Virus record (IMG/VR): IMGVR_UViG_3300021400_005359
Strand: one strand, 5' to 3'
Origin: an uncultured virus (IMG/VR IMGVR_UViG_3300021400_005359)
Lineage: Duplodnaviria > Heunggongvirae > Uroviricota > Caudoviricetes
Length of the DNA: 64,000 bases
Shown: positions 40,130 through 64,000 of the stretch, in pieces
Position numbering within the stretch: the first letter of the stretch is position 1
Layout of the letters: each line of letters starts with the position of its first letter
Made by a program: the position numbers and the translations under genes
Notes under the pieces: model-generated
What the model was told of the DNA's origin: nothing
Seen by the model: the letters and a program-made list of their open reading frames with translations, nothing else
Databases searched by the model: none

Positions 40130-40274
40130 AATTAAAAAATCCTTTCTTTATAAAATCTAAAATTCATTTATATTATATAAACAAAAGATTGAAAATTCAA
40201 TTAATATAAGTTTTAGAGCAATTTCTTCTAATAGATTGTTCTAGTACATTTTATTGATAGAAAGGAGATAAATT

Positions 40275-40673
40275 ATGGCAAAAAGAGAAAGAGAAGATTT
40301 TTGGCTTGATAGACCAATGACGAAAAGAGACAAAAAAATGATAGCAATATTAATAATAAGTATTTATTTTATACTTCTTATGACCATAAATACATTTAGA
40401 GCATACAACTTACATATGGCAAATTATCTAACTTACTATATAGAATTTGGAGCTCACGTTGTTGAAGATAAAATTCATAATGAGCATACAGAATTCGTTT
40501 TCATTCCTTTAAATATAGGTTTTTTTGATTTTGGAGTTGCAGATAAACTTTCAAATATAAAAAGTAAAACAGTTGAGAAATATAATTCTCAAGCTATTGG
40601 AGACGGAATCACAAAATCAATAGCAGGAAAAACGATGGATGAAACTGTTGAAATGATTTCTAAAGGATATTAA
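40275..40673 (+). CDS. Single-pass membrane protein
   Basis: AAAGGAG SD; TM MIAILIISIYFILLMTI; terminator at 40672-40701. Confidence 0.7.
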   Translation: MAKREREDFWLDRPMTKRDKKMIAILIISIYFILLMTINTFRAYNLHMANYLTYYIEFGAHVVEDKIHNEHTEFVFIPLNIGFFDFGVADKLSNIKSKTVEKYNSQAIGDGITKSIAGKTMDETVEMISKGY

Positions 40674-40724
40674 AAAAGAGAGGCTTTAAAGCCTCTCTTT
40701 TATTTGTTTGATTTTTAATATTTA

Positions 40725-41327
40725 TCAGCCAGTTACAAAGTTAACAATAGTATTAACAAGCATAGGAGCATAAAGAACAGCTGCATAAAGAATAGCTGAA
40801 GCAATCATACCTGTTAAACCTTTGCCTGCCATATTTCCCTTTGTAAGACTTCCGATAAGACAAATAGCACAAGATACAATGAAAATAACAATTGCGAAAG
40901 GTTGTGCAAAGATTTGAAGAATAGAAATAATTTCATTTCCTTTCTTTAAAATCCAAGAAACCATCTGGTCTGTACTAACAGTAGGAACTACTTCAGAGTA
41001 GTTAGAGTAAATCTGAACTGTCTTGTCTAAAGAATTAACCTTATTAGGGTCAGAAGCAGTAAGTCTATTTACTAACTCATAATCTTCTCCGAAGACTACA
41101 TAGTCTTGAACTCCAGTAGTTGTATTGTCAATAGCTGAAAGATTCTGTGTCCCAGATTGAGGAATAGTTTCAGCCTGAACTTCAATTGTTCCATCAAGTC
41201 CTGTGTTAACATCAGCTTGAACTTCCTGTGTATCTACAGGCCAACCAATATCAGATGCAAATACAGTTGTTGGGAAAATAAGCATTGCTGATACAAGTAA
41301 TGCAGATATCATCTTAGCGATTTTCAT
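40725..41327 (-). CDS. Secreted/membrane protein with C-terminal TrbC/VirB2-like two-helix hairpin
   Basis: Signal peptide ending VFA|S; about 100-aa polar region; then ISILQIFAQPFAIVIFIVSCAICLIG...GKGLTGMIASAILYAAVLYAPMLVN. Located near the T4SS genes. Confidence 0.5.
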   Translation of the reverse strand: MKIAKMISALLVSAMLIFPTTVFASDIGWPVDTQEVQADVNTGLDGTIEVQAETIPQSGTQNLSAIDNTTTGVQDYVVFGEDYELVNRLTASDPNKVNSLDKTVQIYSNYSEVVPTVSTDQMVSWILKKGNEIISILQIFAQPFAIVIFIVSCAICLIGSLTKGNMAGKGLTGMIASAILYAAVLYAPMLVNTIVNFVTG

Positions 41328-41452
41328 ATTAAATTACCTCCAATTTTTAAATAATAATATAAATATAGAAGATATTTTCTTCTTTATAATATTATAGTAT
41401 CAGCAATTAAAAATTATTAAATTTTTTTAAAATTAAGACATCGAAGAAAAAA

Positions 41453-42874
41453 TTAATCTCCGAGATTAAGTCCTTTAAATACATCAAAAGGATATAAATC
41501 AAGCTCAAAAATTCTTCCAGTTTTATCAAGCTGAATAAAATAATCTGTTCCACCAATTCCTACAACAAGCCAATAATCAAGAGAAGTACCCTTAATTACA
41601 ACTTCTTGACCTTCGTGAAGAATAGTGTCTGAAACATCTTTTGAATTCATTGAATTATATAAAACAATTTGTTCAGAAGAATAAACAATCTGTTCTTCTG
41701 TATTTTGATAATAAGTAGGTTTTACTTCATAAAGATTGTGATTTTTGTCAAGCTTATATTTCTTTTCAAGGCTCCAATTTTGAGTTGTATCTTTATCAAT
41801 ACAAGGAATAATAAGTTCTCCGTTTCCATCTCCTAAAGATATTTCATTTACAGTATCTTTAGTCTCAATTGAAAAACCTCTCCAAAATCCACTAAATACA
41901 AGCTTAATATTATTCCCATCATAGTAATAAATTTCATAATGTTTAGAATCTTCGCTATCTTCATCTGATTTAGATAAAAGAATTTCAGTGTAAGAGTCAT
42001 TTTTATCTATATCAATAAAGTTTATAACAGGAAGAGTTCCATAATCTTTTAAAGCATAAACAGCATCGTTTATTTTTAAAGCATATCCGCACTTATTGTA
42101 ATCATTATAATTAGAATAAATTTTTAAAGTTATAGAATCAACTTTTCCATCGCCATTTAAATCTTTTGAAGTTTCAACACTTGCTGCTTCATCTTCAGAA
42201 GAAAAAGTAGGAACATCAACAGTAGAATATCTAGAAAAATCTATCCCTTGTCCACTACAAGCAACAGATATAAATTCTGAAAGTTCTATTTTATAATGAT
42301 TAACATCTGTTGTAAGCTGTGCATAGTTAAACATCTTATCGAATTCAAAATACTTTATATCATCTTCTGTAGTAATCTTAGGATTCAAAGAAAGCTCATT
42401 TTTTAAAGTATTATCTTCAACTAAATAATGATTTTTAGTTTCTTTATTATATAAGAACCATTTTTTAGCATAGAAAAGGCAATTATCATAACTTGTAGAA
42501 AGTTCTTTATCGCTTCTAACAGGAAGGTCTTCTTTTCTAGCTATCAAAGCTTCTATAAGGTAATATTCATCAGTTAAATGAACATAACTCTTTCTCAAAA
42601 TCTCCATTGAACCAAGAGAAATTTTAACATCTTCTCCATCAATATTTACAGAAGCATCACCATAATTAATTTCTTCTTTTTTACTTTCAACAACTTCTGT
42701 TTCAGGAGCTTCAAAAATTGAAACATTAATATCTTCTGTATTAACTTCTATATTTGAAATAACTGAATCATCTTCTTTTAAATTCTTTGAGATTATAAAA
42801 ACAAGCAAAGAAGCAAAAGCTAAAATAACTACTAAGAATATAGCTATAATCAAATTCTTTTTATTTTTATTCAT
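41453..42874 (-). CDS. Membrane-anchored extracytoplasmic protein with DxxGDG Ca-binding-like loop and possible C-terminal SH3b-like domain
   Basis: N-terminal TM; KDLNGDGKVDSI and FIDIDKND..TEI; C-terminal LHEGQEVVIKG...WLVV. Confidence 0.6.
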   Translation of the reverse strand: MNKNKKNLIIAIFLVVILAFASLLVFIISKNLKEDDSVISNIEVNTEDINVSIFEAPETEVVESKKEEINYGDASVNIDGEDVKISLGSMEILRKSYVHLTDEYYLIEALIARKEDLPVRSDKELSTSYDNCLFYAKKWFLYNKETKNHYLVEDNTLKNELSLNPKITTEDDIKYFEFDKMFNYAQLTTDVNHYKIELSEFISVACSGQGIDFSRYSTVDVPTFSSEDEAASVETSKDLNGDGKVDSITLKIYSNYNDYNKCGYALKINDAVYALKDYGTLPVINFIDIDKNDSYTEILLSKSDEDSEDSKHYEIYYYDGNNIKLVFSGFWRGFSIETKDTVNEISLGDGNGELIIPCIDKDTTQNWSLEKKYKLDKNHNLYEVKPTYYQNTEEQIVYSSEQIVLYNSMNSKDVSDTILHEGQEVVIKGTSLDYWLVVGIGGTDYFIQLDKTGRIFELDLYPFDVFKGLNLGD

Positions 42875-42974
42875 AAAAAACTCCTTTATTTTAAAATTCT
42901 CTATATATTATACAGCAAAAATAATTAAAAACAAAAAAAGATGAGTAGGAGAAAACCTACCCATCTCTTTTTTA

Positions 42975-45900
42975 TTAGAAGTATGAAGCATCATCCTTAA
43001 TGGCTTTTTTATCTTTAAGCATTTCATCACTCATATCATATTCATCCATATCATATTCACTGTCTGACTTAGTATCGCCTCTTACTGAATTTATCTTAGC
43101 CTGAGCTTCAGCGACATCTTCAGCATCGAATTGACCTTTAGCCATTTCAGCTTCAAGTATTCCTGAATCTTCCATATACTCAACAAGGTATGGATTATTC
43201 TTAAGTGTTGTCTTAGTAAATATTGTAGGACAAAGAAGAGGACTTACAGCACTTAATGATGATTGATTGTAATCAAGGTCATCTCTAAAGAATCTATATA
43301 CACTAAATCCTGCAAGATATCCAGTGCTTCCATCTTTAATATTTACACAACTTCCACCACCTCTATATCCACCTGAGTGAATATATGCTCTTTGACTTCC
43401 GTTTACATTTGAATTAGCAAAGCTTAAAACTTCTGTACCTGAACGTCTGATGATTTGATTTCCAAGAATTCTTAGAGTTGAATCATCAAACAATCCACCG
43501 TAATTAGTTGTATAATCACCAATCCAAACAATTGTATGTCCACTAGAAACAAGTAAGTCTCCAGTCTTAAGTTGTCCTTGAGCAAGAAGTGCAGCAGCAT
43601 TTCCGACATACAAATCTCCAAAGTTCGCATTATATGTTGAACAAGTTGAAACAGTTAAGTTATAACCCATAGCAGCATACATTTGAGCTCCAAAGCTTGA
43701 ACAGTCAAATGCCCATTTGTTACCAGCAGCAAATGTTCCTTCACCATAGGAATTAGCTCCCCAAGGTGTTGCATAAGGACCACCACCAAGGTTTTCAGCG
43801 TGAGATGTTCTAGAATAAACAACCCCATTCCAAGCATCTTTTGCTCTACCTTGAGAATAATGAGCTCCAAGATAAGTCATTGCATTAAGTATAAGGGAAT
43901 CTCCCATCTCTCCAGTAAATTCATTGCTTCCTTTTTGAACTGAAGGCTCTTCTCTAAAGAAGTCTAAGTATGTATAAGAGTAATCAGCAGCTTCAGTGTT
44001 GTTGTTTCTGTAGTTAGCAGTCATCTTAATAAGATTATCAACATCGTCAGCATTTACATTTCCAGAAAGAAGTTCAACACCACTATTTTCATATTTAAGA
44101 TACTCTTCTTCCCAAATTTCTTCACTGTAATCTCTCTTATTGCCTGTAGACATAACACCTGAGAATAAATCTCCGTTTGCAAATTCTTCAGCATAGAAAG
44201 AAAGAATCTTTGTACAGTATCTAGGACATCCATAACCAAAGTTTTCACCCATAGGAATCTTAGTTCTATATTCAGCTTCAGAGACTGAAGCAGCTCTAGC
44301 AGCCGCAGAACCAGCCATTTGATGAGTTCTCTTATATCCTTGATACTCTAAACCATTTTCATAGTTATATAAGTATTGTAAATCTCCTTCAGGAGTTAAA
44401 GGATATTCATCTGAAAACTCTAATCTAGCATCTAATGTAACAGGAAGATTATGAGTCTTAATAGCAGTTAAAGGATGCATATCATAACTAGCATTTTGTA
44501 ATGTTCCAGCATAATTCATAACAATGTAATCGATTGAAGCCATAGGGTCAAAAGCTTGCGAATAATTAAATGTAATCGAAACCTTTTGACCATTTTTATC
44601 AGTAGCACTTGCTTTCAAATCTCCGTTAACTATTGAATGTTGAGCAAGTCCACGTCCAGGTCCTCCACCATATTGTTTGATATCAGGATTACCTCCAGAT
44701 TCAACCATTATAAGTGCCATAACAAGTGCAGGGTCAAGAGGTTTTTCAGGAGTACTGAAATTACTACAAACCTGAGTTATGTAATCAATCATTGTTGCAG
44801 AATATCTTCTACCATCAACAAGTGATGTACCTGAAATTTGTTTATTTGCAGCAGCTCTTGTAGCGTCAGCATTTGCTCCAATATCCCAAGCATCATCCAA
44901 CATAATACCTTCAAGTCCACTTGCAGAACCACCAGAATTCATTGAATAAGTAACAAGAAGTTTTCTATAATCCTGATTTGTTATATAAGAAAATGCTTCT
45001 TGAAGTCTATTAATTCCATATATTTCGTGCAAATCTCCACCTTGAACATCTCTCCAATTAATATTATCTCTATCAGCATCATTTAAAAGTTCAAAAGCAG
45101 CTTGGATATCTTCATCAGTAGGTCTATACCACAAACCGTGTTCAGCATTTCTCATTCTGTTTGTTGCATTATCTTCTGTAACGACTATCAAAGCTTTTAC
45201 AAACTTATCAGAATAGAATGATGCATAAACAGCTTTGAGAAGGTCTCCAAGAGATTTAGTTGATTTATAAAGTCTTACAGAAGCATACTGAATAGCATCT
45301 TCCATAACAAGTCTTCCATCAGTAATAGTATCAGCTTTAGCATCTTCAGCAAGACCAGGGTCTGAATGATAAATATCAAAAGCAATTTCATAAGGTTTCA
45401 TAGTTTCGCTAGAAGCAGGAGGGAATACCCAAGTACTCTTATCCTTATCTTCAGGTGGAATATCATCTTCAACCTTATAGTCTTTTGCTCTAGAAACTAA
45501 AGCAGAAAATCCAGAGGAATTTAAATTAACCATATCAGATGAATAACTTGATTTTAATGAAGCATCATCTGCAAGAACAGAATCAACAGCATCAAATACA
45601 TATTCTCCATTTGGAATATTTTCTTCAATATATTCCTTAATTATTCTATTTGCAGTTTCAACAGCAGCATTTAAAGTCTCAGCTGTCCAAGGAGAAGGAT
45701 TATAACCACCAGTTCCATCATCATTATTACCTTTAACAGGTGTTACTGGTAAGAAATAAAGTTTAGCGTTTGGAGCAGCTTTAGTAGCAGCTTTTATAAG
45801 TCTTCTAATATATACAGTATCAATTCCTGTATCAGGAGTTCCTGTAGACTCTAAATCTTTTGCTGAAAGTGAAATTATTATCTTTTCAGTATCTTCAGGA

Positions 45901-48900
45901 ATACTTCCAAGTTGTCCATATAAATCTTGAGCACTAGAACCAGTAATAATTCCACCAAGACCATTACAAGCAGTTGCTCCAGAATGGTCTGAAATCATAT
46001 AAGCTCCAGTTACAATATCTTCTGGACCGCTATGAGAAGTAGAAGAATCAAATTCTTCTGGAACATCAGTAGACATATCCTTATCTTTAAAGTTATCTAT
46101 AGCCATAATACCTACGATAGGAATCAAGTTTCCATCTTTAGTAGTTATCTGCAAATGACTAAAGAAATTAGGGTCGTCCGCTTTTCCTCTACTTGCTCCA
46201 ATAAGCTCTCTTGTCTTAGAAGAAATTTCTTCTGTTAAATCATTACTATAATCAGCTATTCCTTCATAATCCATAAGAGCTGCAGCATCTTCAGGTAAGT
46301 ATTTAAGTTTTGTTTCAGAAATTCCTTGAAGAAGTTGAGCAATTACTGAATTAGGAATATTAAATGCTTGACAAATATCATTCCAATAAGGTTTATTAGC
46401 TTCTGCTGTAAATAAATTAGTATAAGCAATTGTTTGTACAGGATACAAAGTATATTGTGTAAGAAGGTCAGCATATCCTGCAGTTCCTCTAATTTCAAGG
46501 TCTGAATCAGTTATTATATTGTAAGGAACATAAGATTCAAAGTTTTCAAAATAAGAATAAATATAATTTGAAAGTCTATCCATTTCTTCAGTATATCTTT
46601 CAATCTTTTCAACTGGACTACTTTCTGTTATAGTCATCTTATTTTTCCAAGAGTCATAAGTTAAACCTTCAAAATATTTAACTTGTTCTTCAGGGATAAT
46701 CTTCTTTTTAGTTCCACCATAATACCTATATAAAGGATAAAGAGTTGGTTCATCCCTTCTATCAGTAAGTCTAGGAACAAGTACGAAACCAGTTATTGCA
46801 AAATCTTCAGTCTCTCTAGGATGTTCAACATGTCCATCGTCAAAAGCATAATGAGCAGAATTCACAATGTTTCTAACAGTTTCTCCATAAGTTTGATTTA
46901 AAAATGCTACAAATTTATCAGCTTTGTCAGATGTTCCAGTTGAAGAATTTGTATCTCCATAAAGAACTTCTATAGGATTGATTGCAGCAACCTTATTATC
47001 AATATAAACATCATTAAATTTATCTTGGAATACTTCTTCTTCTCTAGAAGTATCTTCATCAGGAGTAAAGGATTTAGATTCTTGGCTTTCCCATAGCTTA
47101 AATCCCATAGGTGCATCCTTAGGCTTTATGTTAATTAATGCATCTCTTATTCCTGTATCAGCTATTGAATTTTGAATAAATCTAAAGAAAAATCCAGTTT
47201 GAGAATTAGCTGTTCCATCAACTCTATGTAAATGAACCCCATTTTTATAATTTCCAGAACTATCTACGGCAGAATCTGTTGAAATATTAATATTCCCTTC
47301 AATTGCTGCTCCGTTGTTCTTTAAATAAGCTCCATAAAGAAGTTCTTTCATAGAATCTTTACCATATCCAATTTCTTTTTCGTTAAGATTTTGGAAATTA
47401 TCAAAAATCTTAACTTGAGGTCTCCACAAATTTTCTAGTGAAGTCTTATAATCTCCAGCCCCATTATAATTGGAAATAGTTATTTCGTTATCATAAATAC
47501 CTTTACCTTTAATATCCTCTAATATCTGTTCAGCTCTTACATTAACTAATGAACCATAATAAGTACTAGAAACCATAGAATTGCTAATTTTCCAATCTTT
47601 AACAAAAGTAAAATCATCAATATGTTCTATATCCGCTTTAACATTATTATCTTGATTAAAATCAAGATTTAAAGAGCTAACATAACTATAATATCTACCG
47701 TCCTTAACTTTGTTTGCAATTTCATCTGAACATTTCAAAGAATAAGTATATATGTTTGCATAACATTTAGCTTTTCCTGAACCATCATCTGGAGTTATCC
47801 AATTACCTCCTTCATATACTTCAAAGTCGAAATCAAATCCTCCAAAAATAGATTCTCCTTCTTCTTTATATCCCATAAGTTTAATATATCTATTAAATAA
47901 AGAAGGAAGTATTTTATTTGTCATTTCAGTTTTATAAGTTGATAAATCTAAACCTGAATCAACTCCATCGCTAGAAATATGGATTCCGACATAATCCATA
48001 TCTACTTTAGCACATAGAGAAAATTCTTGAGAAGTAATTCTAAAACCAGTACAAAGTTGTAATAAAGCATCTGCTATACTTGCTGCCAAATTATTTATAG
48101 CTTCTTTTGCCATATCTAATAAACTAGGACTAGGAGCTTCATAAGGCCAATCATAATTTGCAAATCCATAGGAATGTGCTTCAGCCATAGCAGATAACCA
48201 ACCCATTGCATGAGCTTTATAAAAAGTTACTGCACATTCAGCAGCTTGGTCTTCACTTATAGGTACTTGATTTCCATTACCATCATCAACTGTAAATGTT
48301 TGACATTGTCCTAATAAATCTTCGTAAGGATGTCCTTCTGAAAATTCTCTATAAACACCCATAGCTCCAGTTCCTTCGTATTTCAAACAAGGAGCAAGAT
48401 AAGGGACAGATAAAATATCATATATAGCAGAATTTACTTCGTCACTATCATAAGCATTAGCTAAACGATTCCAAGCTTCTTTAATTTGGTTAGCCTCGTC
48501 ATCACTCATTGGAGTATTTATTACTGTTCCATTGGAATCTGTATGCTCAGTATTAGCATTAGCTATAAAAGATTCTGCACTATATCCACCCATACTAGCT
48601 ATAGCATCATTAGCCATACCATTTACAATTGCTTCATCCATTTGATATTCAATCTTATTGCTTAATAAATCAAAAGTTTCATTATAAGTATCATCAGAAA
48701 AATCACTATGAACACCATCAAAAGTATGTTTAAATGCATCTGGTAAATTAGTATCCATAAATACAAATCCAGAGAAAATCATATTTGTATATGATTCAAT
48801 TTCTTTTCTTATTTGAGAATCAGATTCCCAATGATTACTATCATCTCCATTATATGATTTCAATTCATCAACCATACTAGCTGGAACTGCATATAAGAAA

Positions 48901-54176: not shown

Positions 54177-54391
54177 ATAGTTTTTATGCGAAAGAAAAAA
54201 TCTTTCTTATCTCCTTTCAAAGACTAATAGTAATAAAATATCTATCTATTTATTATATTCTTATTTAAACTTTCAATAATTTAAATAAAGACATTTTTAC
54301 TAAGTTTATTTTAGAATATACATATAAAAACCCATTTTTATAAAAAAATAAAGAAGAAGAGCTAAGCTCTTCTTCTCTATTTTAATTTTTA

Positions 54392-57300
54392 TTATCTTTC
54401 AATGCCACCAACTTCTGTTTGAACAGGTTTCTTTTGTGTCGAATTATCAATTCCTTTATTTTCTTTAGCCTTTAATTGTTCTTGAAGCTGTCTTATAAGT
54501 TCATCTTTTGCATCAAGTTTCTTTTGAAGGTCACTAACATTTTTATTAGCTTCCTTAGTTTCAGCCTCTTGAATTTTTAAAGCATCTCTTAATTCTTTAA
54601 CTTCAACATCTTTTTTTGCTTTTCTTGCCTCTTCAAGCTTTTTAGCACTGTCTATATCTTCCTTTGAAACAATTTCTTTTATAGCATCTTTGTATTCATC
54701 TCTTAAATCATCTAAATTAACAAGTTTTGCCATATCAGAGTTATTAATACTATCTTTTAATGACTCAAGAATTTCATCAATTGAATGGTCTGAAGTTTTT
54801 CTATCAAAATAGTCATTAACAGCGTAAACATCTAACTCATTATTTATAATAGCTCTTATTAAATCAACTTGTTTTTCATATGTACTATTACTGCTTATTT
54901 GATTTATTGTTAAAGGCATTTCATCAACTTTAAATTCATAAGGATTAGCATTTTTTGTAATATCAATTACAGGTTTTAATAATTTATTTTTCTTGTAACC
55001 AATTACATTTTCTAAATTATCAACAACGTAATCAACATTATAAATATTAGAAGAATCAATTCCAATGTTATGAACATCAGACAAATCTAAATCTTTAAAA
55101 TCATCTAAAAGTAAAATAGATGAACTGTCTCCATAACTTTTTAGAACTTGTTTTAAAGCATTTGCACTTTCGTCACTTAATTTAATAGAAACTTCTCCAT
55201 TTATTTTATCAAAAATTTCTTTTTCACTTAAATCTTTATTATCTATTAAATTAGAAATTTCAGAACAAATCTTTTTAGCTTCTAACCCTTTAAAATCTTC
55301 TTTCTTTAAAAATGCTTCTCTCTTTTCAAAGTTTTCTTGATTAATATAATCAATTAATTGTCCAAGTTGCTTAGATGTTAAATTGTAAGAAGTATTTTCT
55401 CCAATTTCAATCTTATAAGAAATTCCATTTTCTTGTAAAGATTTAAATAATTCTTCTGAAGCTTTTGTTTCTAATGGAACAAGATGAAAATCTTTGTCAA
55501 TACACATATTAACAGCTCCATTTACATTTGAAATATTATATACCTTGTTTTCTTCTAAAGAACTATCTAAAAGTCTTTCTGATTCATCATAGAAAGCATT
55601 TACATTTTTAGCTATTTTTAATATATTTTCTTTATTTCCAACTTCTTTAAAAGTAGACTTTAATGCAGAATATAAAACAGTATTACTAGATTCACCAATC
55701 ATAAAGTCTTTAGCTTTTTCTTTATCATTAAGATAAGCATCAACGAAAGAATTAAAATCATCTTTTGAAAGTTCTTTTAAAGCAGAAGTTAATGTTAAAA
55801 ATCTCTTATTAGATAAATCCTTGTCTTCAAATATTTCATTTGTAGTATTTTTTAACTGTTTAATTGTAGGAGCAATTTTATCATATACATCTTTTGTATA
55901 TTCTTCATTTTCCTTAAGGTCATTTTCATTTTGCATAGAGAATTCAAGGTCTTTTTCTAATTTTTCTACAATTTGAGAATATCTATCATTAACAAACGTA
56001 GTATAATCTCCTATAGTCATTAAAATTTTTTCATTTTCTCTTCTATTCTTATCCAAATCTTCTATGCTTTCTATTAATTCTTCAGTAGATATATCTTTGT
56101 TATCAGAATTTGAAAGATGGAAAAACTTTCCAATTTTGTTTACGAAACCAGAATTTTTTTCATTTTTATTTTCACTTTCATACTCTTTTTCAACTCTTTC
56201 AACTAAATCTTTCTCAAATAAAGCAATTTCGTTTTTAATATCAGTTAATCTTTCATTATGTTCATTTTTAATACCTTCAAGTTCTCTATATTCTTTAGTG
56301 TTTTGTTTTTCTTCATCTTCTAAATTTCTTAAATTATTATTAATTTTTTCAATTAAATCTTCTTCTTTATCCCTAACTTTGAAATAAGATTTAAGAACAT
56401 CTTCTTCTTTTACCTTCTCATATTCAGAAATATTTTCAATATTAGAGAAAATATCCTTCTTATTTTTTAATTCTTCAAATTCAAGTTGTTTATCAATATA
56501 ATCTTTATTGTATTCAGAAATAGATTTTCTTAACTCTTGAAGTTTATCATCTATAGATTTAGTATCTGCATTAGAATCTTTTTCTAATTTTTCTGCTCTC
56601 TTTTCTTCAAGTTCATCTTTTTCTTTTTCTTTTTGAGATATTTTATCGTCAAGCTCCTTTAATTCTTTATCTAATTTATCAATTTGTTTGTCAAATGTTT
56701 TTGAAAATTCTTCAATACTATTTTCTTGTAATCTTTCTAAGTCTTGAAGAGCCTTATCTAATGAATTAAAGGTTTTTTCAGGTTTAATATAAAGAGCTTT
56801 AGTATTTTTATCTCTAGCAACTTCATATCCTAAGAATTTTTCATCAATAACAACAATCTTTTCAGCTAAAGCTTCTTTAAGGTCTTCATTATTTCTTATT
56901 TTCTCAATTACTTCTTGATTTAAAGGATATTCTAAATTCAAAGGAATATCTTTCCCACTATCAACACAATCATAGATTGACTTTAAAGATTGTCTAACTT
57001 TTAAAACTTTCAAAACATCGATATTTTTACCATCTTCAGTAAAGAAAATTTTATTCATTAAATCTTTTCTGTCTTCATATTTATTTTCTGGGTCAAAAAG
57101 TTGTTTTCCTAAACTTTTGCCATCCAAAAATCTAGAAGTATAATTATCATCAACAATATTATAAATTAATTCTTCTAATTGCTTTTTAGAATCTTTATCT
57201 CTAACTCTGTGATTAACATCATCACTAATAGATTTCATAATTCCTCTAGCAGCAATAATATGTTCATTATGAGTAACTACGTCATTATTATTAGCTTTTA

Positions 57301-59245
57301 CTGTATATTCAGAATTATTCAATAATTCAACAAAAGGTTCAATAACCATATCTAAAGATTCTTTGTTTTGCAATGAATCATTTTTATTTATTAAAGTTTT
57401 TAAAGCTTCAGAATCGTATTTACCATTTACAAAAATCTTTTTAAGTTCTTCATCGTTTTTTATTAAAACGTCTTTGCCATCAACATTTCCTTTACTAAAG
57501 AATATATTATTTAAGGTTTGGTAACTCTCTTCAATAGTTTTTCTTTGTTTTTCATCTAAATCTGAAAGAGTAGACATAAATTTTCCAATATTTTTATTAG
57601 AATTTTCTGAAAACTCCAACAAATCTTTTGTTGTTTCTTCTGATAAACTTTGTTGAGAAACTTCCATAATCTTCTTTAAAAATTCATCAAAATTCATATA
57701 TTGATAATTTTCGCCAAGCAAAGCTCTTCTTTGAGATTCTTGAATATTATTTAAATAAGTATCTTTAATACCGCAAGTAACTTCAAGTTTATATTGAATT
57801 TCTTTTAAACTCCTAATGTTTTCCATTAAAGAAGGAATATCTCTCGACCTTAAATTTTGAGATTCTTTTTTTATGTAATTTGCTTGGTCTATAACAGCCT
57901 TTTTGCGAACATCTAAAAGAATCATATCTGTTGTTTCTTCTTTTTTAAGATAATGACTAATTTCTTTCTTTAAATCATCGTTTTGACGAAGAATTGTTGT
58001 TGAAGAAATATCATCTCTTTGATTATATTTAAGTTCTTCAAAATTTTTAAAATTGCTATGTAAAAAAGTTTCAAAGTTTAAATATTTATCGCCTTTTTTT
58101 CTATGCCAATCAGTCATACTTGCATCATTTAAACCGTTTTTAGAGAAATAATCATAAAGAATTTCAATCTTTTTTAAATTCTTTTTATAATTTTCTTCTA
58201 CCGAAGAAACAATTCTATTATATTCTTCGATTTCTTCTCCTTTTGCTCCTTCAAATTTTTTCTGTTCTAATTTCTTTATTTTTTCCATATCTTCTTTAGA
58301 AATTAAACCAATAGATAAATCTTCTTGGAGTTCTTTAAGTTCTTTTTTTAAATCCTTATAAGAACGAGAATCTATATTAGCTTTAAGTTTTGGACCTAAA
58401 CCAGGATATTGTTCATAAGACAATCTCCATCCAAATTCTTCTAAAACAGATTCATAGTCTTTTTGATAACCATCAATAAAATCTAAAAATGATTTTTGTT
58501 TATCACCCCTAATATTTTTTTCAGATAAAACTTTCAAATCATTTCTAGTTCCAAAATTTATTAAAGACGTTTCACATCTAGATAAAAAAGTCTTATCATT
58601 CGTACATATATTATAACGCCTTAAAATCGAATCTCTTTCAGAACTCTTAGAATAAGAATCTATTTCTTCTTTATTTCTTAAATAAGAATCATTATAAGAA
58701 TTTAAAATATCTGATAAATAAAAAGAAACACTTTCTTGCAAACCGTTTTCTTCAATATAATTAACCAAATTCCTATAATTATCTTCCTTTTCTTTTTTAA
58801 AATTATCAGGAATCATCTCTGATAATTTTTCCCAAAAGAAATCATCAAGTAATTTCTGCAAATCTTGATAATTATTATTCAAATTATCCATCATTGTACG
58901 TTCTTTTAATTTTATCTGATTAGAATTAGAAGCAATAATATTTGTATAAGGAGATTGAAAAGAAACAATATTTTTCCCATCATCATCGAAGCCTATTACA
59001 AAACTTGGATGTTTTTCTCCATTATTTGTTACAAACGAAAGATTTTTCTTATCACTTGCATTTATAGTAAAATCTTTACTCCATTTAAAACCTTCTGTTT
59101 CACTAAAATCAATATCTCTCAAAACTAATGCAAAATCTTTTTTATTTTTTGAATGTAAATTTAAATCAACTTTTAATTCCTTTTCTTTTTCAAATCTTTC
59201 AGACCCATAAAGATTTGTTTTTACTAAATCATTTTTATAAGACAT
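54392..59245 (-). CDS. Large (1617-aa) K/E/N-rich coiled-coil protein
   Basis: Long heptad-like stretches (DKLDKELKELDDKISQKEKEKDELEEK; LQKKLDAKDELIRQLQEQLK), no TM, ends EVGGIER. AGGAG SD. Confidence 0.75.
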   Translation of the reverse strand: MSYKNDLVKTNLYGSERFEKEKELKVDLNLHSKNKKDFALVLRDIDFSETEGFKWSKDFTINASDKKNLSFVTNNGEKHPSFVIGFDDDGKNIVSFQSPYTNIIASNSNQIKLKERTMMDNLNNNYQDLQKLLDDFFWEKLSEMIPDNFKKEKEDNYRNLVNYIEENGLQESVSFYLSDILNSYNDSYLRNKEEIDSYSKSSERDSILRRYNICTNDKTFLSRCETSLINFGTRNDLKVLSEKNIRGDKQKSFLDFIDGYQKDYESVLEEFGWRLSYEQYPGLGPKLKANIDSRSYKDLKKELKELQEDLSIGLISKEDMEKIKKLEQKKFEGAKGEEIEEYNRIVSSVEENYKKNLKKIEILYDYFSKNGLNDASMTDWHRKKGDKYLNFETFLHSNFKNFEELKYNQRDDISSTTILRQNDDLKKEISHYLKKEETTDMILLDVRKKAVIDQANYIKKESQNLRSRDIPSLMENIRSLKEIQYKLEVTCGIKDTYLNNIQESQRRALLGENYQYMNFDEFLKKIMEVSQQSLSEETTKDLLEFSENSNKNIGKFMSTLSDLDEKQRKTIEESYQTLNNIFFSKGNVDGKDVLIKNDEELKKIFVNGKYDSEALKTLINKNDSLQNKESLDMVIEPFVELLNNSEYTVKANNNDVVTHNEHIIAARGIMKSISDDVNHRVRDKDSKKQLEELIYNIVDDNYTSRFLDGKSLGKQLFDPENKYEDRKDLMNKIFFTEDGKNIDVLKVLKVRQSLKSIYDCVDSGKDIPLNLEYPLNQEVIEKIRNNEDLKEALAEKIVVIDEKFLGYEVARDKNTKALYIKPEKTFNSLDKALQDLERLQENSIEEFSKTFDKQIDKLDKELKELDDKISQKEKEKDELEEKRAEKLEKDSNADTKSIDDKLQELRKSISEYNKDYIDKQLEFEELKNKKDIFSNIENISEYEKVKEEDVLKSYFKVRDKEEDLIEKINNNLRNLEDEEKQNTKEYRELEGIKNEHNERLTDIKNEIALFEKDLVERVEKEYESENKNEKNSGFVNKIGKFFHLSNSDNKDISTEELIESIEDLDKNRRENEKILMTIGDYTTFVNDRYSQIVEKLEKDLEFSMQNENDLKENEEYTKDVYDKIAPTIKQLKNTTNEIFEDKDLSNKRFLTLTSALKELSKDDFNSFVDAYLNDKEKAKDFMIGESSNTVLYSALKSTFKEVGNKENILKIAKNVNAFYDESERLLDSSLEENKVYNISNVNGAVNMCIDKDFHLVPLETKASEELFKSLQENGISYKIEIGENTSYNLTSKQLGQLIDYINQENFEKREAFLKKEDFKGLEAKKICSEISNLIDNKDLSEKEIFDKINGEVSIKLSDESANALKQVLKSYGDSSSILLLDDFKDLDLSDVHNIGIDSSNIYNVDYVVDNLENVIGYKKNKLLKPVIDITKNANPYEFKVDEMPLTINQISSNSTYEKQVDLIRAIINNELDVYAVNDYFDRKTSDHSIDEILESLKDSINNSDMAKLVNLDDLRDEYKDAIKEIVSKEDIDSAKKLEEARKAKKDVEVKELRDALKIQEAETKEANKNVSDLQKKLDAKDELIRQLQEQLKAKENKGIDNSTQKKPVQTEVGGIER

Positions 59246-59343
59246 ATCTTTATCTCCTATATAAATCTTTTTTTATATATTACTATATTTTTGTAAAAAA
59301 AATAAGAGAAGTTAAATATTTAACTTCCCTTATTTTCATATTT

Positions 59344-62300
59344 TTAAGCATTAGCTTTCATAGAACCAATCTGATTATTATCTTTATCATAAATCTTTTG
59401 ATTTCTCAATGACTCAATATTTTTCTTATTTGCTGCATCTCGTCCTCTTTTCTTTGTTTCCATCATAGTTCTTTCAGCAGATTCGTTATTTGTATTATAA
59501 CCACCTTGAATTGTAGTTCTTCCTGCACCAGCTGATTGTTTACTATAAGGGTCAATTTCCATATAAGACTTAGCTCCTTCAAATTGATTAGCAAAATCCT
59601 CTGCATTATAACTAACATTATCATCTTTTCTAGAATCATAGTTATCTATATCTTTATAACTAATATTTCCATTTCCATCATCCTGACGAACGAAACGATG
59701 ATATTCATTAGAATTTCTATCTTTTGCCATTACAGTGTTTACTTTATCTGCTAAGTTTTGGTCTTTAACTTCATAACAATTTTTAAATTGTGAAGAAATT
59801 TCTCCTCCAACAGCTCTATCATCATATGTCATAACCTCATTTTTACCATTAGAGAAATCATTTACATAAGCAGCTTTTCCTGTTGCACGAACATATTTGC
59901 TATGGTCATCTCCTGCCTTAACTGCCTTTGCAGCATCTGAAGATAAAGAACTCTTACTGTTACTTAAGTAAGATTTAGCTTGTTTCAAGTCTTGTTTTGC
60001 TTGTTTTATATCAGCTTTACTTGCCTTATCTGCTTTTAATTGTTTAAGATTATCTTTCGCACTGCTAACAGCTTGTTCCTGAGCTCTGTAGTTGGCAACA
60101 TCTTTCATCTCTTCAGAACTCAAATTATTCATAGCTTTTGCTTCATCCTTTCCAGTTTTTGCTTCCATTCTCTCATTACGATTATCTATAGCTTGTCCAA
60201 TATCAGCAGCAGCAGTTCCTATATCATCAGTAACACTATTACCATAATTTTCAGAAGCTTTAACACTACCAGCTACATCTCCAAGATTTGCTCTTGTAGC
60301 AGCATTTCCCATAATACCACCAGTACCTTTATAAGCACTAATTGCTTTAGAAGCACCGCTTAATGCGTGACCAGCAACTCTAGCTTTACCACTTCCATTT
60401 TCTTTAAGAGCTTTACCAGCAGTAGATAAGTTTCCGACAGCAGCATCTTTACCGACACTACCAGCTCCGCCAGAACCACTTTTTCCACCACCTCCAACAC
60501 CATTAGTTGCTCCAATATCTCTATTTACATTAAGGTCTGAAATAGCAGGATTATCTCCACCATATTTCTTAGTAAGTGCTCCAGCAGCAATATTTGCTCC
60601 ACCAGCAGCAACACCTAAAGCCTTATTCTCAATAGCAGCAAATGCAGTTTGAGCACCAGCTTTTCCTTGAGATACTGCGAAAGAACCAGCATTACCAAAG
60701 ATAAGCTGTCTAAAGCTATCAATAATAGGAAGAAGTGAGAAATAAATTACAAGTTTAGTAAATAAACCATTTGTATTTCCCATTACGTCAAAGAGGAAAG
60801 CAAATGAAAATGCGTGAACAGATTGCATAAATATATTTGCTGAAATCTCTTTGAGCCAGTTATCAAAAAGTCCTTTTTGTTTAGGACCAGAGAAAGCCAT
60901 TGAAACTATAAATAATGGAGCAGATGCAGTAAGAAGTGCAATCATAATTGCTCTCATTATATAAATACCATTCATTACAACAGTAATACCTAAAAATCCT
61001 AAAAGGATTATAATTCCTGCGATTCCGAATGAGCTAGCTCCCATAAGACCACCATCAGCCTGTGTTTGAAACAAATCAACAATTAAATTGTTAAATGTTG
61101 CAAGTAGTCTAATAAATGGAATACAAAGAGCAAGTGAGAAACCTACAATAACAAACTTTTGTAATGTTTCCATAAGACTCATTCTAAGTGAAGGATTAAT
61201 TGTTGAAAAATTTATCTGAATCAAAACTTTTGCAACAGCAACAGCTATAATCATCCAAGCCACAATTTGGAATATTAAATGATATTTAAGTACTGTTCCC
61301 CACCAAGAAGCACTCATCATACCAGCTTCATAACTAGCATTACTACGAGCACCACCATTATAAATAAGTTGTTCAATAGTTTGTAATCCAAGGGCATTTG
61401 TTAAACCAGTATAAATACCGTAAAACATTTTGTAGATTGTTTCCTCTACCCAGCCCATTTCTCCAGCACCAGCACCCTCTGTAGTAACATCAGAATACTG
61501 TGCTTGAGCAGTTGCATAGTTAGCTATAGAAAAGATTGTAACCCATACAGCATCACCTTTTGATTCAGAATCAGGCATATTGTCATTTCTTACACCATAA
61601 GGGTCTTTACCATCTGCAAACTGTTTTCCAGTTGTAGGGTCTAAATATCCTTTAGGCATAGCCCAAATGACACCAGAATCAGCTTTTGAAGGACGACCTG
61701 CTTTATGGGCTTCATCTCCATCATTTTCATTAAATATATAAGCTAAAAGATTTCCTTCTTCATCAATTACTTTATATCCATCAGAAGAATATACAGCATT
61801 ACCAGGAACCCAGTCTCCATAATTATCAGCTCCGCAAAAAATTATTTTGTTCCCAAATAATTCGTGAACATTACCATCAGCAACGCCTTTTAATTCATCT
61901 ACAATTTGAATACTTGCAGCGACATAATCTACAGTTGGATTTACAGCAACAACAGTATTTTTAAAATCAACCATATCCTTAACTGAAGAAATCAAAGTAT
62001 TCATATTAGAGCCAAGAGTAGAAGAAATCTCTTGAGCTCTCTTCATATCTACATCAAAAGAATGTGAATCATTTTTATCTCTGTCATATGAAGGAAAACT
62101 ATAAACAAGTCCAGTATCTGTAAGATTTTTACCACCAAATTTATCATCACCTTCAGCTATTGCATCATTTAATTTAAATGGGTCAGCTCCTGCTACTAAT
62201 GCAGAATAAACTGTCCAGTCAAGATATTTTTGATTTCCCTTTGTTTTCTTTTTTAATTGTTTTGCTTCATAAGAATCTCCCATACTGTTAGAATCTTCGT

Positions 62301-62496
62301 GAACATTAACATTTAATGTTCCAGTCGAATCCCAAGTAGATGTTATCATCCAGGAATCGTGACCACCAACTGCTGAACCTTGAATACCAGCATATACAGG
62401 AGTTGGAGCCATAATATCTAATGGTAAAAATGAGAAGATAATTATAAAGCATACAATTTTAAAAAATATAGATTTTTTTAAATTATGAATCTTCAC
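59344..62496 (-). CDS. VirB6/TrbL-like polytopic T4SS membrane protein with large N-terminal extracytoplasmic domain and Gly/Ala-rich C-terminal tail
   Basis: Signal peptide; central 5-6 TMs with YIMRAIMIALLTASAPLFIVSMAF...FDNWLKEISANIFMQSVHAF; adjacent to VirB4. GTG start with AGGAGG SD. Confidence 0.8.
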   Translation of the reverse strand: MKIHNLKKSIFFKIVCFIIIFSFLPLDIMAPTPVYAGIQGSAVGGHDSWMITSTWDSTGTLNVNVHEDSNSMGDSYEAKQLKKKTKGNQKYLDWTVYSALVAGADPFKLNDAIAEGDDKFGGKNLTDTGLVYSFPSYDRDKNDSHSFDVDMKRAQEISSTLGSNMNTLISSVKDMVDFKNTVVAVNPTVDYVAASIQIVDELKGVADGNVHELFGNKIIFCGADNYGDWVPGNAVYSSDGYKVIDEEGNLLAYIFNENDGDEAHKAGRPSKADSGVIWAMPKGYLDPTTGKQFADGKDPYGVRNDNMPDSESKGDAVWVTIFSIANYATAQAQYSDVTTEGAGAGEMGWVEETIYKMFYGIYTGLTNALGLQTIEQLIYNGGARSNASYEAGMMSASWWGTVLKYHLIFQIVAWMIIAVAVAKVLIQINFSTINPSLRMSLMETLQKFVIVGFSLALCIPFIRLLATFNNLIVDLFQTQADGGLMGASSFGIAGIIILLGFLGITVVMNGIYIMRAIMIALLTASAPLFIVSMAFSGPKQKGLFDNWLKEISANIFMQSVHAFSFAFLFDVMGNTNGLFTKLVIYFSLLPIIDSFRQLIFGNAGSFAVSQGKAGAQTAFAAIENKALGVAAGGANIAAGALTKKYGGDNPAISDLNVNRDIGATNGVGGGGKSGSGGAGSVGKDAAVGNLSTAGKALKENGSGKARVAGHALSGASKAISAYKGTGGIMGNAATRANLGDVAGSVKASENYGNSVTDDIGTAAADIGQAIDNRNERMEAKTGKDEAKAMNNLSSEEMKDVANYRAQEQAVSSAKDNLKQLKADKASKADIKQAKQDLKQAKSYLSNSKSSLSSDAAKAVKAGDDHSKYVRATGKAAYVNDFSNGKNEVMTYDDRAVGGEISSQFKNCYEVKDQNLADKVNTVMAKDRNSNEYHRFVRQDDGNGNISYKDIDNYDSRKDDNVSYNAEDFANQFEGAKSYMEIDPYSKQSAGAGRTTIQGGYNTNNESAERTMMETKKRGRDAANKKNIESLRNQKIYDKDNNQIGSMKANA

Positions 62497-62603
62497 ATTA
62501 AAAACCCTCCTTAAAGATTTATTAAATATAAGAATAAACTTCTCTTATTTTTATGTTATGCTTTACTATTCTTTCTTATAAAAAATAAATCTTATATTTA
62601 CTT

Positions 62604-64000
62604 TTAATAATATTTTTTAGTTATTAAATCCATTTCATACTTAAATGGATAAGCAAGAGCAACAGAAGATTCACCTTTACATCTAATAAGCATTTCTCCT
62701 CTTTTAGCTGTAAGAAGGAATAACTTTTCACCTTCTGAAAGTCTAAATGTCTCTTTTACTGCTTCAATATCTGTTGAAGACTGCTGTAAGAAAATATTAA
62801 CAACAGCGTTTGTAAGAACTGCCTTACCTTGAGGGTTGTCAGCAAATTCAATAAAGTTCTGTGAAGCAACTAAAAGTCCACCATTTCTTTTTCTTATACG
62901 TCTTGATGTATTCTCAAGGAACTGAGCAGTAAATTCACATCCAGCCATATTCTTATTCATAAGCATCCAAGCTTCGTCACAAATAATTCTCTTCTTTATA
63001 TCAGGATTCTTCTTTATGAATTTCTCCCAAGTCCAAGTAAGAGAAATATACATTCCGATAGGTCTTAAGATAGATTCTTCAAGCTGTGATACATCAAATG
63101 AAATAATAGGCATATCAAAGAAACCTACAAGGTCTTTAGATGTTTGTCTATCAAATAAATCGTAAATACCACCCTTACAGAACATCTTCATAGTATTAGC
63201 AATTTTCTTAATACTATCATTGTTTTCTCTATCAGCATAAGCTGTTAAAAGTCTATTAAAATCGGATAAAGTAGGCATAGGTTTTTTAATATTATGAATC
63301 ATTTCACCTGTTTCAGGGTCAAAAGAAGCCTCATCACTCATAAGAGATTGAGGGTCTTCTGTGAAACCTTTTTCATCATACATCTGACCAAGAACAGAAG
63401 CAATAACTGATTTAGCTTCCTTATCAAGACCACCAACCATAACAGCTATAAGGTTTAAGTTATCAGCTATCTTAGATTTTATATCAACTCTCATAATCTT
63501 CATATCAGGGTCAAATTCTTCTTCAATATCAAAAGGATTAATACCTGTAGCTACGTTTGGAGCAAGTTTAATATAAGCTCCACCCATTTCACGAGTAAGG
63601 TTTTTATATTCACCTTCAGGGTCAATAATAACAGTTCTAATGTTCTTCAAAGCACTTCTTAAAGTAAGTAAACTTAAGAAGAATGATTTACCAGAACCAG
63701 CCTGTCCGAATACAGTAATGTTAGAGTTATTTAAAATACTTCTATCATAGAAGTCCATAAGTACAGGAGTAGCAGTTGCAGTATTTATTCCAAGGAAAAT
63801 TCCATCTTTGTGTGAAATTTCTGAATTGTAAAAAGGAAAGCAAGCTGTTAAAGCTCCTGTATTAAAGTTTCTAAGTCTATCTTTAATAAACATTTCTCCG
63901 ATAGGAAGAGTTGACTTATAACCTTCATCCTGTCTTAAATAAAGCTCATTAATATCAATTCTTCTACCTTTAAGTCTGTTAACTAAACGAGAAGATTGTT
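62604..64000 (-). CDS. virB4: VirB4/ConE-family conjugation ATPase (5' end beyond the window)
   Basis: Frame stays open to the window edge (...LYLRQDEGYKSTLPIGEMF...). Walker A GQAGSGKS, IIDPEGEY, MPTLSDF, Walker B ICDEAW, RRIRKRNGGLLVASQ. Confidence 0.93.
   Translation of the reverse strand, partial: QSSRLVNRLKGRRIDINELYLRQDEGYKSTLPIGEMFIKDRLRNFNTGALTACFPFYNSEISHKDGIFLGINTATATPVLMDFYDRSILNNSNITVFGQAGSGKSFFLSLLTLRSALKNIRTVIIDPEGEYKNLTREMGGAYIKLAPNVATGINPFDIEEEFDPDMKIMRVDIKSKIADNLNLIAVMVGGLDKEAKSVIASVLGQMYDEKGFTEDPQSLMSDEASFDPETGEMIHNIKKPMPTLSDFNRLLTAYADRENNDSIKKIANTMKMFCKGGIYDLFDRQTSKDLVGFFDMPIISFDVSQLEESILRPIGMYISLTWTWEKFIKKNPDIKKRIICDEAWMLMNKNMAGCEFTAQFLENTSRRIRKRNGGLLVASQNFIEFADNPQGKAVLTNAVVNIFLQQSSTDIEAVKETFRLSEGEKLFLLTAKRGEMLIRCKGESSVALAYPFKYEMDLITKKYY

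Follow-up and report, generated by a model that had tools for sequence, protein, structure and literature searches.

DNA passage through the thick donor and recipient walls is an open question in monoderm conjugation. Among described wall hydrolases, the closest to the one reported here is PrgK of plasmid pCF10, a DELTA-class VirB1-like enzyme described as membrane-anchored, carrying several extracellular hydrolase domains, including SLT-type and CHAP/NlpC-P60-type domains, and encoded after VirB4 and VirB6. VirB6 proteins of the MPF_FA class are given in a review as polytopic proteins of 700–900 residues with a low-complexity tail, and two recent reviews describe Gram-positive type IV secretion systems (T4SSs) as having no VirB2 homologues, with the exception of Patescibacteria. 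The Patescibacteria systems are described as monoderm, mostly without a relaxase, and equipped with an array of VirB2-like genes (PF04956, PF18895). Large Bacillota plasmids offer two further comparisons, of which one, the ‘Hodor’ megaplasmids of the human gut (bioRxiv 2026, PMC12934698; compared by description only), is reported to exceed 300 kb and to encode VirB4, a divergent VirB6 and VirD4. The other is the tip locus of pXO16, a ~350-kb plasmid of B. thuringiensis sv. israelensis, described as an atypical T4SS whose wall hydrolase is TipB and for which neither a relaxase nor an oriT is known.

The window analysed here, a 64,000-nt stretch of DNA, carries six open reading frames of a T4SS module, all on the minus strand, in agreement in orientation and coordinates with an earlier note on this DNA (Table 1). 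The frames are not fortuitous, given their length in DNA of 24–35% GC, their conservation in relatives and dN/dS values that stay under 1 in every gene but the 1617-aa one, which is at ~1 (compared with the related metagenome contig L019). We consider it the best explanation, with a probability of roughly 0.62, that the cluster serves mating-pair formation, as a T4SS, for a large plasmid-like element whose host is a low-GC member of the Bacillota in ruminant guts and which belongs to a widespread and experimentally unstudied plasmid family. Comparative analysis shows that the predicted VirB4, VirB6-like protein, anchored multi-domain hydrolase and VirB2/TrbC-like two-helix protein stand in the family-wide order, bearing out the Gram-positive-type T4SS cluster proposed previously. 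The accompanying proposal of an undescribed class of machine does not hold, because the core is common to a broad plasmid family and the giant hydrolase is colinear with PrgK-like three-domain hydrolases.

Table 1. Features of the T4SS module
Feature	Coordinates	Strand	Basis
VirB4-type ATPase, C-terminal 464 aa	62604..64000	-	Pfam and NCBIfam matches, plasmid homologues
Extended VirB6/TrbL-like channel protein, 1050 aa	59344..62496	-	Near-threshold TrbL match, topology, synteny
Terminator 3′ of VirB6-like gene	59294..59337	-	18-bp stem then T-run; hairpin position kept in L019, stem differs
1617-aa helix-rich protein	54392..59245	-	No signal peptide or TM segment, no family match; lineage-specific
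Terminator 3′ of 1617-aa gene	54341..54383	-	Long GC-containing stem then T-run; kept in L019
Giant membrane-anchored wall hydrolase, 3733 aa	42975..54176	-	Topology, domain order, hhalign, catalytic residues
Terminator 3′ of giant gene	42923..42972	-	17-pair stem and T-run; kept in L019
473-aa protein, N-terminal membrane anchor	41453..42874	-	TM 4–33; lineage-specific
VirB2/TrbC-like protein, 200 aa	40725..41327	-	Signal peptide, variable region, two conserved hydrophobic helices
Bidirectional terminator closing the cluster	40674..40701	.	12-pair stem; L019 hairpins in the same place

The VirB4 gene runs past the end of the window, which holds only its C-terminal 464 aa (62604–63998). This segment matches Pfam P-loop_TraG (E 1.1e-21), AAA_10 and DUF87, and its top NCBIfam model is conju_CD1110, the VirB4-like CD1110 family (E 2.1e-61), on which full-length homologues score 248–294 bits, below the equivalog cut-off of 325. 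In tblastn searches, VirB4 is 55–66% identical to the VirB4 of 11 Bacillota plasmids, and the best matches of a RecD2-like helicase (33–39%) and FtsH (45–51%) fall in the same plasmid set. Because the three proteins agree, we place the window in a family of Bacillota plasmids, 127–722 kb in size, that spans Bacilli, Clostridia and Tissierellia and includes B. thuringiensis Bt407 BTB_502p, C. perfringens pJFP838A, a 301-kb plasmid of C. difficile BI1 and a 722-kb Aneurinibacillus plasmid, among others. The literature found holds no study of this family's transfer system, though its members include plasmids of well-known species. A Patescibacteria origin was considered and dropped once VirB4, RecD2 and FtsH had agreed on Bacillota plasmids. 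PLSDB yielded no DNA-level match of the module, and NC_018516 (pXO16) yielded none to the window VirB4, in a search run without its own positive control; the profile of the 200-aa protein reached only E 0.01 there, and the pXO16 tip locus is not of this family.

Gene order supports this placement. All four related megaplasmids compared, as well as a Tissierellia MAG contig, encode PrgI, a ~320-aa protein, VirB4, a VirB6-like protein, a hydrolase and a ~150-aa protein in that order, with PrgI annotated on four of four plasmids and matching Pfam PrgI at 1.4e-10 in the related locus L005. The megaplasmids share the VirB6-like (29–32%) and VirB2-like (30–44%) proteins, the RecD2-like and FtsH backbone genes and Flp pilins with the window, but differ in having hydrolases of 886–1148 aa and in lacking the 1617-aa and 473-aa genes. 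The relative L019 retains all ten genes of the block in order, so that the co-occurrence in a related element on which the earlier note had staked its claim is observed; divergence is very uneven, from 97% identity for VirB4 (dN/dS 0.04) to 27% for the 1617-aa protein. The window does not include the N-terminal part of VirB4, nor PrgI, a coupling protein or Tad machinery, and that this element has them is only extrapolated from the relatives.

The 1050-aa protein is predicted to have a signal peptide, a ~370-aa ecto-domain, about six hydrophobic helices (402–595) and a ~430-aa tail rich in A, G, K, N and S, resembling the polytopic, low-complexity-tailed layout described for MPF_FA VirB6. Its assignment as VirB6-like is a sub-threshold family match: Pfam TrbL is hit at E 1.1e-5 and 25.7 bits, just short of the 25.9-bit cut-off, and the three proteins from the window, L005 and L019 all score 25.6–25.8 bits. 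In addition, it is 29–32% identical to the protein following VirB4 on four megaplasmids. The earlier note proposed greatly enlarged parts, but this protein exceeds the 700–900 residues reported in the review for MPF_FA VirB6 only slightly.

The 3733-aa protein is predicted to be oriented N-in with one transmembrane segment. From the N-terminus it comprises a K-rich segment, the single TM helix (~123–146), a ~2,500-aa stalk without internal repeats, an SGNH-like domain (~2700–2890), an SLT domain (~3145–3345) and an NlpC/P60 domain (~3480–3610), an order that recurs in six further clusters of 3382–3951 aa. The GDSL, SLT and NlpC/P60 Pfam matches are each weak, and are firmed by profile comparison and catalytic-residue conservation. 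Specifically, the NlpC/P60 residues Cys3492, His3547 and His3600 are invariant in 7/7 sequences and the SLT Glu-Ser pair is kept in 5/7, so both predicted domains retain catalytic residues, while the SGNH-like domain lacks the block V His and is probably inactive. No M23/LytM signal was found in the giant or its six homologues.

Five compact orthologues of 886–1148 aa have a clear SLT domain, M23 (5/5) and sometimes NlpC/P60. Queried with the giant, neither BLAST nor a plain HMM search found similarity in the compact hydrolases or in any plasmid record; only profile–profile comparison gave matches. In hhalign, the matches are colinear: giant residues 273–326 align with compact 155–202 (96.6%, E 6e-10), ~1060–1110 with 234–286 (59%), ~2533–2560 with 387–414 (56%), the SLT domain 3153–3345 with 490–660 (96.2%) and the NlpC/P60 domain 3500–3565 with 981–1039 (90%), two of the five thus falling below 60% probability. 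This comparison of predicted proteins shows the giant to be a colinear orthologue of compact PrgK-like hydrolases of ~900–1150 aa, with ~2,200 residues inserted between conserved stalk blocks, M23 lost and an SGNH-like domain gained. AlphaFold2 modelling of the stalk (residues 150–1340, 4-sequence alignment) gave no usable fold (mean pLDDT 30.2), and the ESM Atlas held no usable match for it.

Topology, profile alignment and catalytic residues point to a VirB1-like membrane-anchored peptidoglycan hydrolase of a monoderm T4SS. Relative to the domain set of PrgK-type DELTA enzymes (anchor, LytM, SLT or muramidase, CHAP), the giant has the anchor, SLT and NlpC/P60 and lacks M23/LytM; its ~2,500-aa stalk and the SGNH-like domain without the usual catalytic His set it further apart from PrgK. 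It is presumably about four times the length of PrgK, and is three to four times the usual hydrolase length, in keeping with the exceptional size (3733 versus 886–1148 aa) noted earlier. The accompanying statement that Gram-positive systems use hydrolases of only a few hundred residues overlooks the multi-domain PrgK-type enzymes described in a review.

The cluster ends with the gene for the 200-aa protein, whose homologues follow the hydrolase gene in 6/6 related loci. The protein has the topology of VirB2/TrbC, with a signal peptide followed by two C-terminal hydrophobic helices separated by a short loop, and its dN/dS against L019 is 0.09. The protein itself does not match TrbC (PF04956) or T4SS_pilin (PF18895) even at E 5. 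Its relatives touch both models, TrbC in 2/7 and 20/150 (best 5.2e-7) and T4SS_pilin in 7/150, with all matches sub-threshold or weak; the single bit score seen, 24.9, falls short of the curated threshold of 27.9 by which VirB2/TrbC membership is judged. Two-helix proteins also attract noise, since 31/150 relatives match LptF_LptG, and against PDB sequences the family profile found no solved pilin, only signal-peptide-like matches. The VirB2-like gene named in the earlier note is present. Two Patescibacteria loci occur among the VirB4 relatives (34–38% identity) and carry no gene of the 200-aa type; in contrast to the Patescibacteria arrays, the window has a single VirB2-like gene, on a Bacillota plasmid and with a VirB1-like hydrolase. 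A conserved VirB2/TrbC-like gene ending the cluster in all family members examined would qualify the statement that these systems have no VirB2, and the plasmid family provides a cultivable setting for testing the question. The previously suggested association with Flp-like pili is favoured by a Tad/Flp locus that adjoins the T4SS on 3/4 related megaplasmids, the Bt407 stretch having no Tad genes annotated within 20 kb; the two Flp-like genes of the window align with small genes in these loci. The further tie to the SLH adhesin suggested in the earlier note gains no support here: the 3101-aa SLH protein had no match on any plasmid record.

The remaining two genes, absent from all five compact loci, are lineage-specific additions to the cluster. 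The 1617-aa protein, labelled a coiled coil in the earlier note, is helix-rich, matches nothing in Pfam or NCBIfam, is found in three clusters only among 5.8 billion proteins, plus L019, and has no usable match in the ESM Atlas. An AlphaFold2 model of residues 1–560 (pLDDT 59.8) has a small beta domain plus helices, and Foldseek against the PDB returned nothing for it at E ≤ 1e-3, with query-normalised TM-scores ≤ 0.15. It had been taken for an enlarged extracellular part, but with signal peptide and TM segment both absent, and hence no export signal, a location outside the cell is improbable. The 473-aa protein, described before as anchored, indeed has one N-terminal TM segment; it matches no family and has four close clusters (41–98% identity), which share contig sizes in the protein database with those of the giant and the 1617-aa protein.

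Do these two genes belong to the machine at all? They might be independent, moron-like cargo with their own promoters and terminators, a reading that we regard as unlikely. It would account for their absence from the compact loci and for the terminators flanking the 1617-aa gene. RNA-library contigs tile 54400–59267 end to end in 4/4 runs and stop at the gene borders (at the start end in 4/4 runs, and at 54400–54409 in the three runs with listed pieces reaching the stop end); with its own transcript and no export signal, the 1617-aa protein may be unrelated to secretion, and its dN/dS is 0.97. Cargo would not, however, explain why L019, even at 27% identity and dS ~0.8, still has them in the same position and order, why their contig sizes in the protein database coincide with those of the giant hydrolase, or why an open frame of 1617–1663 aa is maintained in all four homologues.

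The T4SS itself could have been co-opted for contact-dependent killing or protein export, with the giant as a weapon, a long filament showing peptidoglycan-degrading domains to neighbours. Transfer has been shown for no member of the plasmid family, which counts against the conjugation reading, and no relaxase family is found among the window ORFs or recognised on any of the four related plasmids examined (PLSDB typing: non-mobilizable). Typical antibacterial enzymes include SLT and NlpC/P60, whose catalytic residues are intact here, the non-ATPase parts diverge quickly, and Patescibacteria provide a described precedent of a monoderm T4SS without relaxase and with VirB2-like pilins. We nevertheless judge co-option improbable: the giant is N-terminally anchored and colinear with compact T4SS hydrolases at the same gene position, and no immunity-like gene was identified adjacent to it. 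Moreover, no coupling protein occurs among the window ORFs, but one (PF02534) scores above cut-off on 4/4 related plasmids, 43–59 kb from VirB4, and in 2/4 the annotation places ‘replication-relaxation’ proteins close to the Tad locus. That the cluster instead belongs to a phage-derived or phage-plasmid structure is very improbable. YopX and other phage-like genes do occur on the related plasmids, and C. difficile surveys are described as grouping such elements with phages, but a viral contig collection yielded no relative of VirB4 and, in Pfam and NCBIfam searches, the module genes match T4SS families, not virion families.

As a mating-pair-formation module, the cluster would work as follows. 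DNA would cross the donor membrane through the action of VirB4, VirB6 and a coupling protein whose gene lies elsewhere, and the hydrolase would sit N-in/C-out beside the channel via a conserved juxtamembrane motif. The long stalk would hold SLT and NlpC/P60 far from the membrane, so that the two enzymes could breach a thick envelope made of wall and S-layer-type proteins, possibly as far as the wall of the recipient. Channel formation or partner contact may be aided by Flp pili and the VirB2-like protein, with the 1617-aa and 473-aa proteins as putative lineage-specific accessories; the non-ATPase parts may diverge fast because selection is relaxed or diversifying on surfaces that are exposed or non-catalytic. 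A bolder version, which we put forward only tentatively, is a Bacillota T4SS with outward parts of the kind said to be missing from textbook monoderm systems. It would combine Flp pili with a VirB2-type pilin that is under strong purifying selection and an anchored ‘lance’ of ~3,600 residues whose wall-cutting tip reaches far beyond the donor wall. If true, mating or attack would be possible through thick, S-layered envelopes, and Bacillota T4SSs would have their first VirB2-like pilin family in the 200-aa proteins (256 representatives). The orthologous hydrolases, from ~900 to ~3,900 residues, offer a natural series for asking whether stalk length tracks envelope thickness.

The ‘Hodor’ description (PMC12934698) resembles this element and its family in reporting giant surface proteins and the lack of a canonical relaxase. 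It differs in GC content, 44–47% versus ~30% here, and in that its giants, of 7300 and 2642 aa, have S-layer/MBG domains, are sortase-associated and are encoded away from the T4SS cluster; the preprint's main text makes no mention of a hydrolase, Tad or pilus.

Transcription signals agree with the earlier note in part. RNA folding confirms strong hairpin and T-run terminators on the coding strand 3′ of the VirB6-like, 1617-aa, 3733-aa and 200-aa genes; all four recur at matching positions in L019 with different stem sequences, and the gene beyond the last of them lies on the opposite strand. The proposed TATAAT boxes fare differently, as promoter-like matches are no commoner than chance (98 versus 105.4 expected; 38 versus 44.8 expected). 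RNA-library contigs over the module genes other than the 1617-aa gene are patchy and uninformative on their expression. Many RNA contigs also show ‘joints’ with short sides (20–27 letters) at 90% likeness, which we take to be assembly or cross-organism noise.

The six genes that an earlier note on this DNA had described as co-oriented are present as it described them, all on the minus strand (see table). A chance origin of frames this long is ruled out because the region has a GC content of only 24–36%. The gaps between the genes measure 98–215 nt. The genes do co-occur in a related element, one of the two points on which the earlier note had staked its reading: on L019, a metagenome contig of 39 kb, all ten genes recur with their order unchanged. 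Gap-by-gap folding of the coding strand shows strong hairpins with T-runs 3′ of the VirB6-like, 1617-aa, giant-hydrolase and 200-aa genes, and all four terminator hairpins are kept in L019, with different stem sequences. The terminators claimed between the genes thus stand, whereas the accompanying TATAAT boxes carry little weight alone, because promoter-like hexamers are not commoner than in shuffled sequence (98 versus 105.4 and 38 versus 44.8).

Features in the window and their divergence from contig L019 (identities are amino-acid; dN/dS values are rough NG86 estimates, with dS of 0.54–1.41 partly saturated)
Feature	Position	Strand	Identity	dN/dS	Remark
VirB4	62604-63998	minus	97%	0.04	cut off by window end; DNA identity 88.6%
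VirB6-like protein, 1050 aa	59344-62496	minus	45%	0.58	ORF
1617-aa protein	54392-59245	minus	27%	0.97	ORF
Giant hydrolase, 3733 aa	42975-54176	minus	61%	0.32	ORF
473-aa protein	41453-42874	minus	62%	0.35	ORF
p200 (VirB2-like), 200 aa	40725-41327	minus	84%	0.09	ORF
Four small genes	37940-40673	132 aa plus; 358, 123, 108 aa minus	44-87%		same order in L019
FtsH	35412-37331				housekeeping-type
3101-aa protein	25840-35145	minus			N-terminal anchor, PSGT repeat
Flp-type prepilin genes, ~73 aa	14396-14620, 14734-14952	minus			tandem; motif G|GPNVEQ
Other housekeeping-type genes	1-25300

VirB4 matches P-loop_TraG in Pfam (1.1e-21), and among NCBIfam models the VirB4-like CD1110 family fits it best. 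By tblastn, 4,079 of 72,556 plasmid records match it; eleven plasmids of 127–722 kb stand out at 55–66% identity, the next records among the matches listed being at 33–37%. Hosts of these closest plasmids are Aneurinibacillus, Brevibacillus, Paenibacillus, Bacillus thuringiensis Bt407, Geobacillus, Jeotgalibacillus, Clostridioides and Clostridium perfringens. The same plasmids rank at or near the top for the RecD2-like helicase and FtsH of the window, which therefore lies on a member of that plasmid family rather than on a chromosome. All four megaplasmids examined share the order PrgI, a ~320-aa protein, VirB4, an 880–940-aa protein, hydrolase and a ~150-aa protein, and the same compact core occurs in a Tissierellia MAG contig. 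Upstream, three of the four have genes annotated as a Tad/Flp locus, along with TlpA and a sigma factor; two of these three add ClpX. Each of the four encodes a VirD4/TraG-type coupling protein 43–59 kb from VirB4; PLSDB types all four as non-mobilizable, and their VirB4s score 248–294 bits against the CD1110 model, under its cut-off of 325. Conjugation is the likeliest predicted function of the cluster, with a probability of about 0.6.

Several local features of these relatives were also recorded, with positions given in the stretch examined of each plasmid. The Aneurinibacillus plasmid has a second, partial VirB4-like stretch (42–422), which precedes the main VirB4 by 20 kb and is 74% identical to residues 1–127 of the window's VirB4 fragment. 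On the C. difficile BI1 plasmid, the cluster is directly followed (28365–30857) by a CBASS-type defence pair, made up of a DncV-like cGAMP synthase and a SAVED-domain protein. The VirB6-like region of C. perfringens pJFP838A (21427–25588) is annotated as two hypothetical genes of 542 and 370 aa, between which sits an HNH endonuclease gene that may be a homing element splitting the VirB6-like gene.

The VirB6-like protein of the window scores 25.7 bits against TrbL/VirB6 (cut-off 25.9), and two homologues score likewise. Its signal peptide leads into an ecto-domain of ~370 aa, followed by about six hydrophobic helices and a low-complexity tail of 430 aa. An excerpted 2025 review describes ‘extended VirB6’ proteins of this layout, with 700–900 residues, in MPF_FA systems, so the enlargement to 1050 aa is only modest.

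The giant hydrolase has a lysine-rich N-terminus and a single strong transmembrane segment at about 123–146, which, by the positive-inside rule, places a predicted ~3,590 residues outside the cell. A large protein database contains six further clusters of giant homologues (3382–3951 aa, 30–87% identity). Across the seven giants, weak Pfam matches follow a constant C-terminal order of GDSL-like (5/7), SLT (3/7) and NlpC/P60 (6/7), and against the PDB their profile finds SGNH esterases at E 1.5e-3 and CwlO at E 0.013. All seven share the Cys and both His of NlpC/P60, and five have the SLT Glu-Ser; the SGNH-like domain may be inactive, because it has neither the customary block V His nor a recognizable GDS block. 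Five related clusters, those of the megaplasmids and the Tissierellia contig, encode compact hydrolases of 886–1148 aa with clear SLT and M23 domains and, in three of the five, NlpC/P60. BLAST and plain HMM searches detected no resemblance of the giant to its compact counterparts, whereas comparing profile with profile yielded colinear matches in five places. These are a juxtamembrane motif (96.6% probability, E 6e-10), a pair of short blocks in the stalk (59% and 56%), SLT (96.2% across 161 columns) and the core of NlpC/P60 (90%). We read these matches as indicating that the giant is an orthologue of the compact hydrolases, with about 2,200 residues apparently inserted in an N-terminal ecto-region that corresponds to ~440 aa in the compact forms. 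For the stalk, no internal repeats and no structure-atlas match were found, and AF2 gave no usable model (pLDDT 30.2).

None of the five compact loci encodes a counterpart of the 1617-aa or the 473-aa protein. Relatives of the two are very few overall, with three and five homologue clusters, respectively, and these share contig sizes of 38,006, 80,128 and 464,774 bp with the giant's homologues. Rich in helix, the 1617-aa protein has no predicted signal peptide or transmembrane segment, and a fold search with its residues 1–560 gave no match. Many studies of sheep, bovine and goat guts yielded metagenomes with the element, and six metatranscriptome runs contain it too. Long RNA contig pieces of about 97–98% identity tile the 1617-aa gene (54400–59267) in four of four runs. 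At its start end the pieces stop at 59254–59267 in all four; at its stop end they stop at 54400–54409 in three, and in the fourth the first piece among those listed begins at 54563. These ends hint weakly that the gene is transcribed separately, between the predicted terminators; RNA libraries may contain DNA, and contigs cannot rank genes.

Homologues of p200, the 200-aa protein, come after the hydrolase in six of six related loci. Searched with a profile, 1.84 billion representatives yielded 256 relatives at E ≤ 1e-3, mostly of 125–190 aa. Among the best 150 of these, 20 match TrbC/VirB2 (best 5.2e-7), 7 match T4SS_pilin (best 4.2e-6) and 31 match LptF_LptG more weakly; we take the last as hydrophobic-helix noise. 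Architecture and intermediate matches support a putative VirB2-like gene as claimed, yet p200 itself matches no family, and no solved pilin by sequence; the label therefore lies below the family threshold. It matters against the statement, in the portions of two recent papers drawn on here, that VirB2 homologues are absent from Gram-positive T4SS classes except Patescibacteria. VirB4 relatives at 34–38% identity include two Roizmanbacteria/Patescibacteria MAG loci, in whose flanks no p200-type gene was found.

The earlier note had proposed an undescribed class of machine. Our literature search found nothing on the transfer system of this Bacillota plasmid family and no T4SS hydrolase above 3,000 aa, and excerpted sources term BTB_502p and pJFP838A each novel or unique. 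We set the proposal aside: at its core the module is an ordinary monoderm T4SS, carried by a Bacillota plasmid family. In this lineage the hydrolase is hugely extended though orthologous, two genes have been added, and there is a VirB2-like gene. The tip system of pXO16, atypical according to the source as excerpted, is unrelated to the window's T4SS by sequence search. The ‘Hodor’ preprint (PMC12934698), in the portion available, presents megaplasmids conceptually similar to the window's element, but these differ in GC, and their giants carry S-layer domains and accompany sortases; the accessible main text makes no mention of hydrolase or Tad. Three distant Hodor relatives in plasmid databases might include members of the window's plasmid family.

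As for the ‘Flp-like pili’ that had been suggested, the two prepilin genes are there and can be aligned with small genes from the Tad loci of related megaplasmids; the window contains no Tad machinery. In the 3101-aa protein the SLH motifs, at the C-terminus, are weak (Pfam E 0.0097), and no plasmid record has a match to it. Plasmid-borne copies of housekeeping-type genes (NAD-dependent DNA ligase, ADP-ribosylglycohydrolase, 5′-3′ exonuclease, RecD2-like helicase, SpoVG, NT5C nucleotidase and, further on, FtsH) are interspersed with many ORFs without family match. The four small genes beyond the cluster have no counterparts in the compact loci; the 358-aa and 123-aa proteins contain transmembrane segments.
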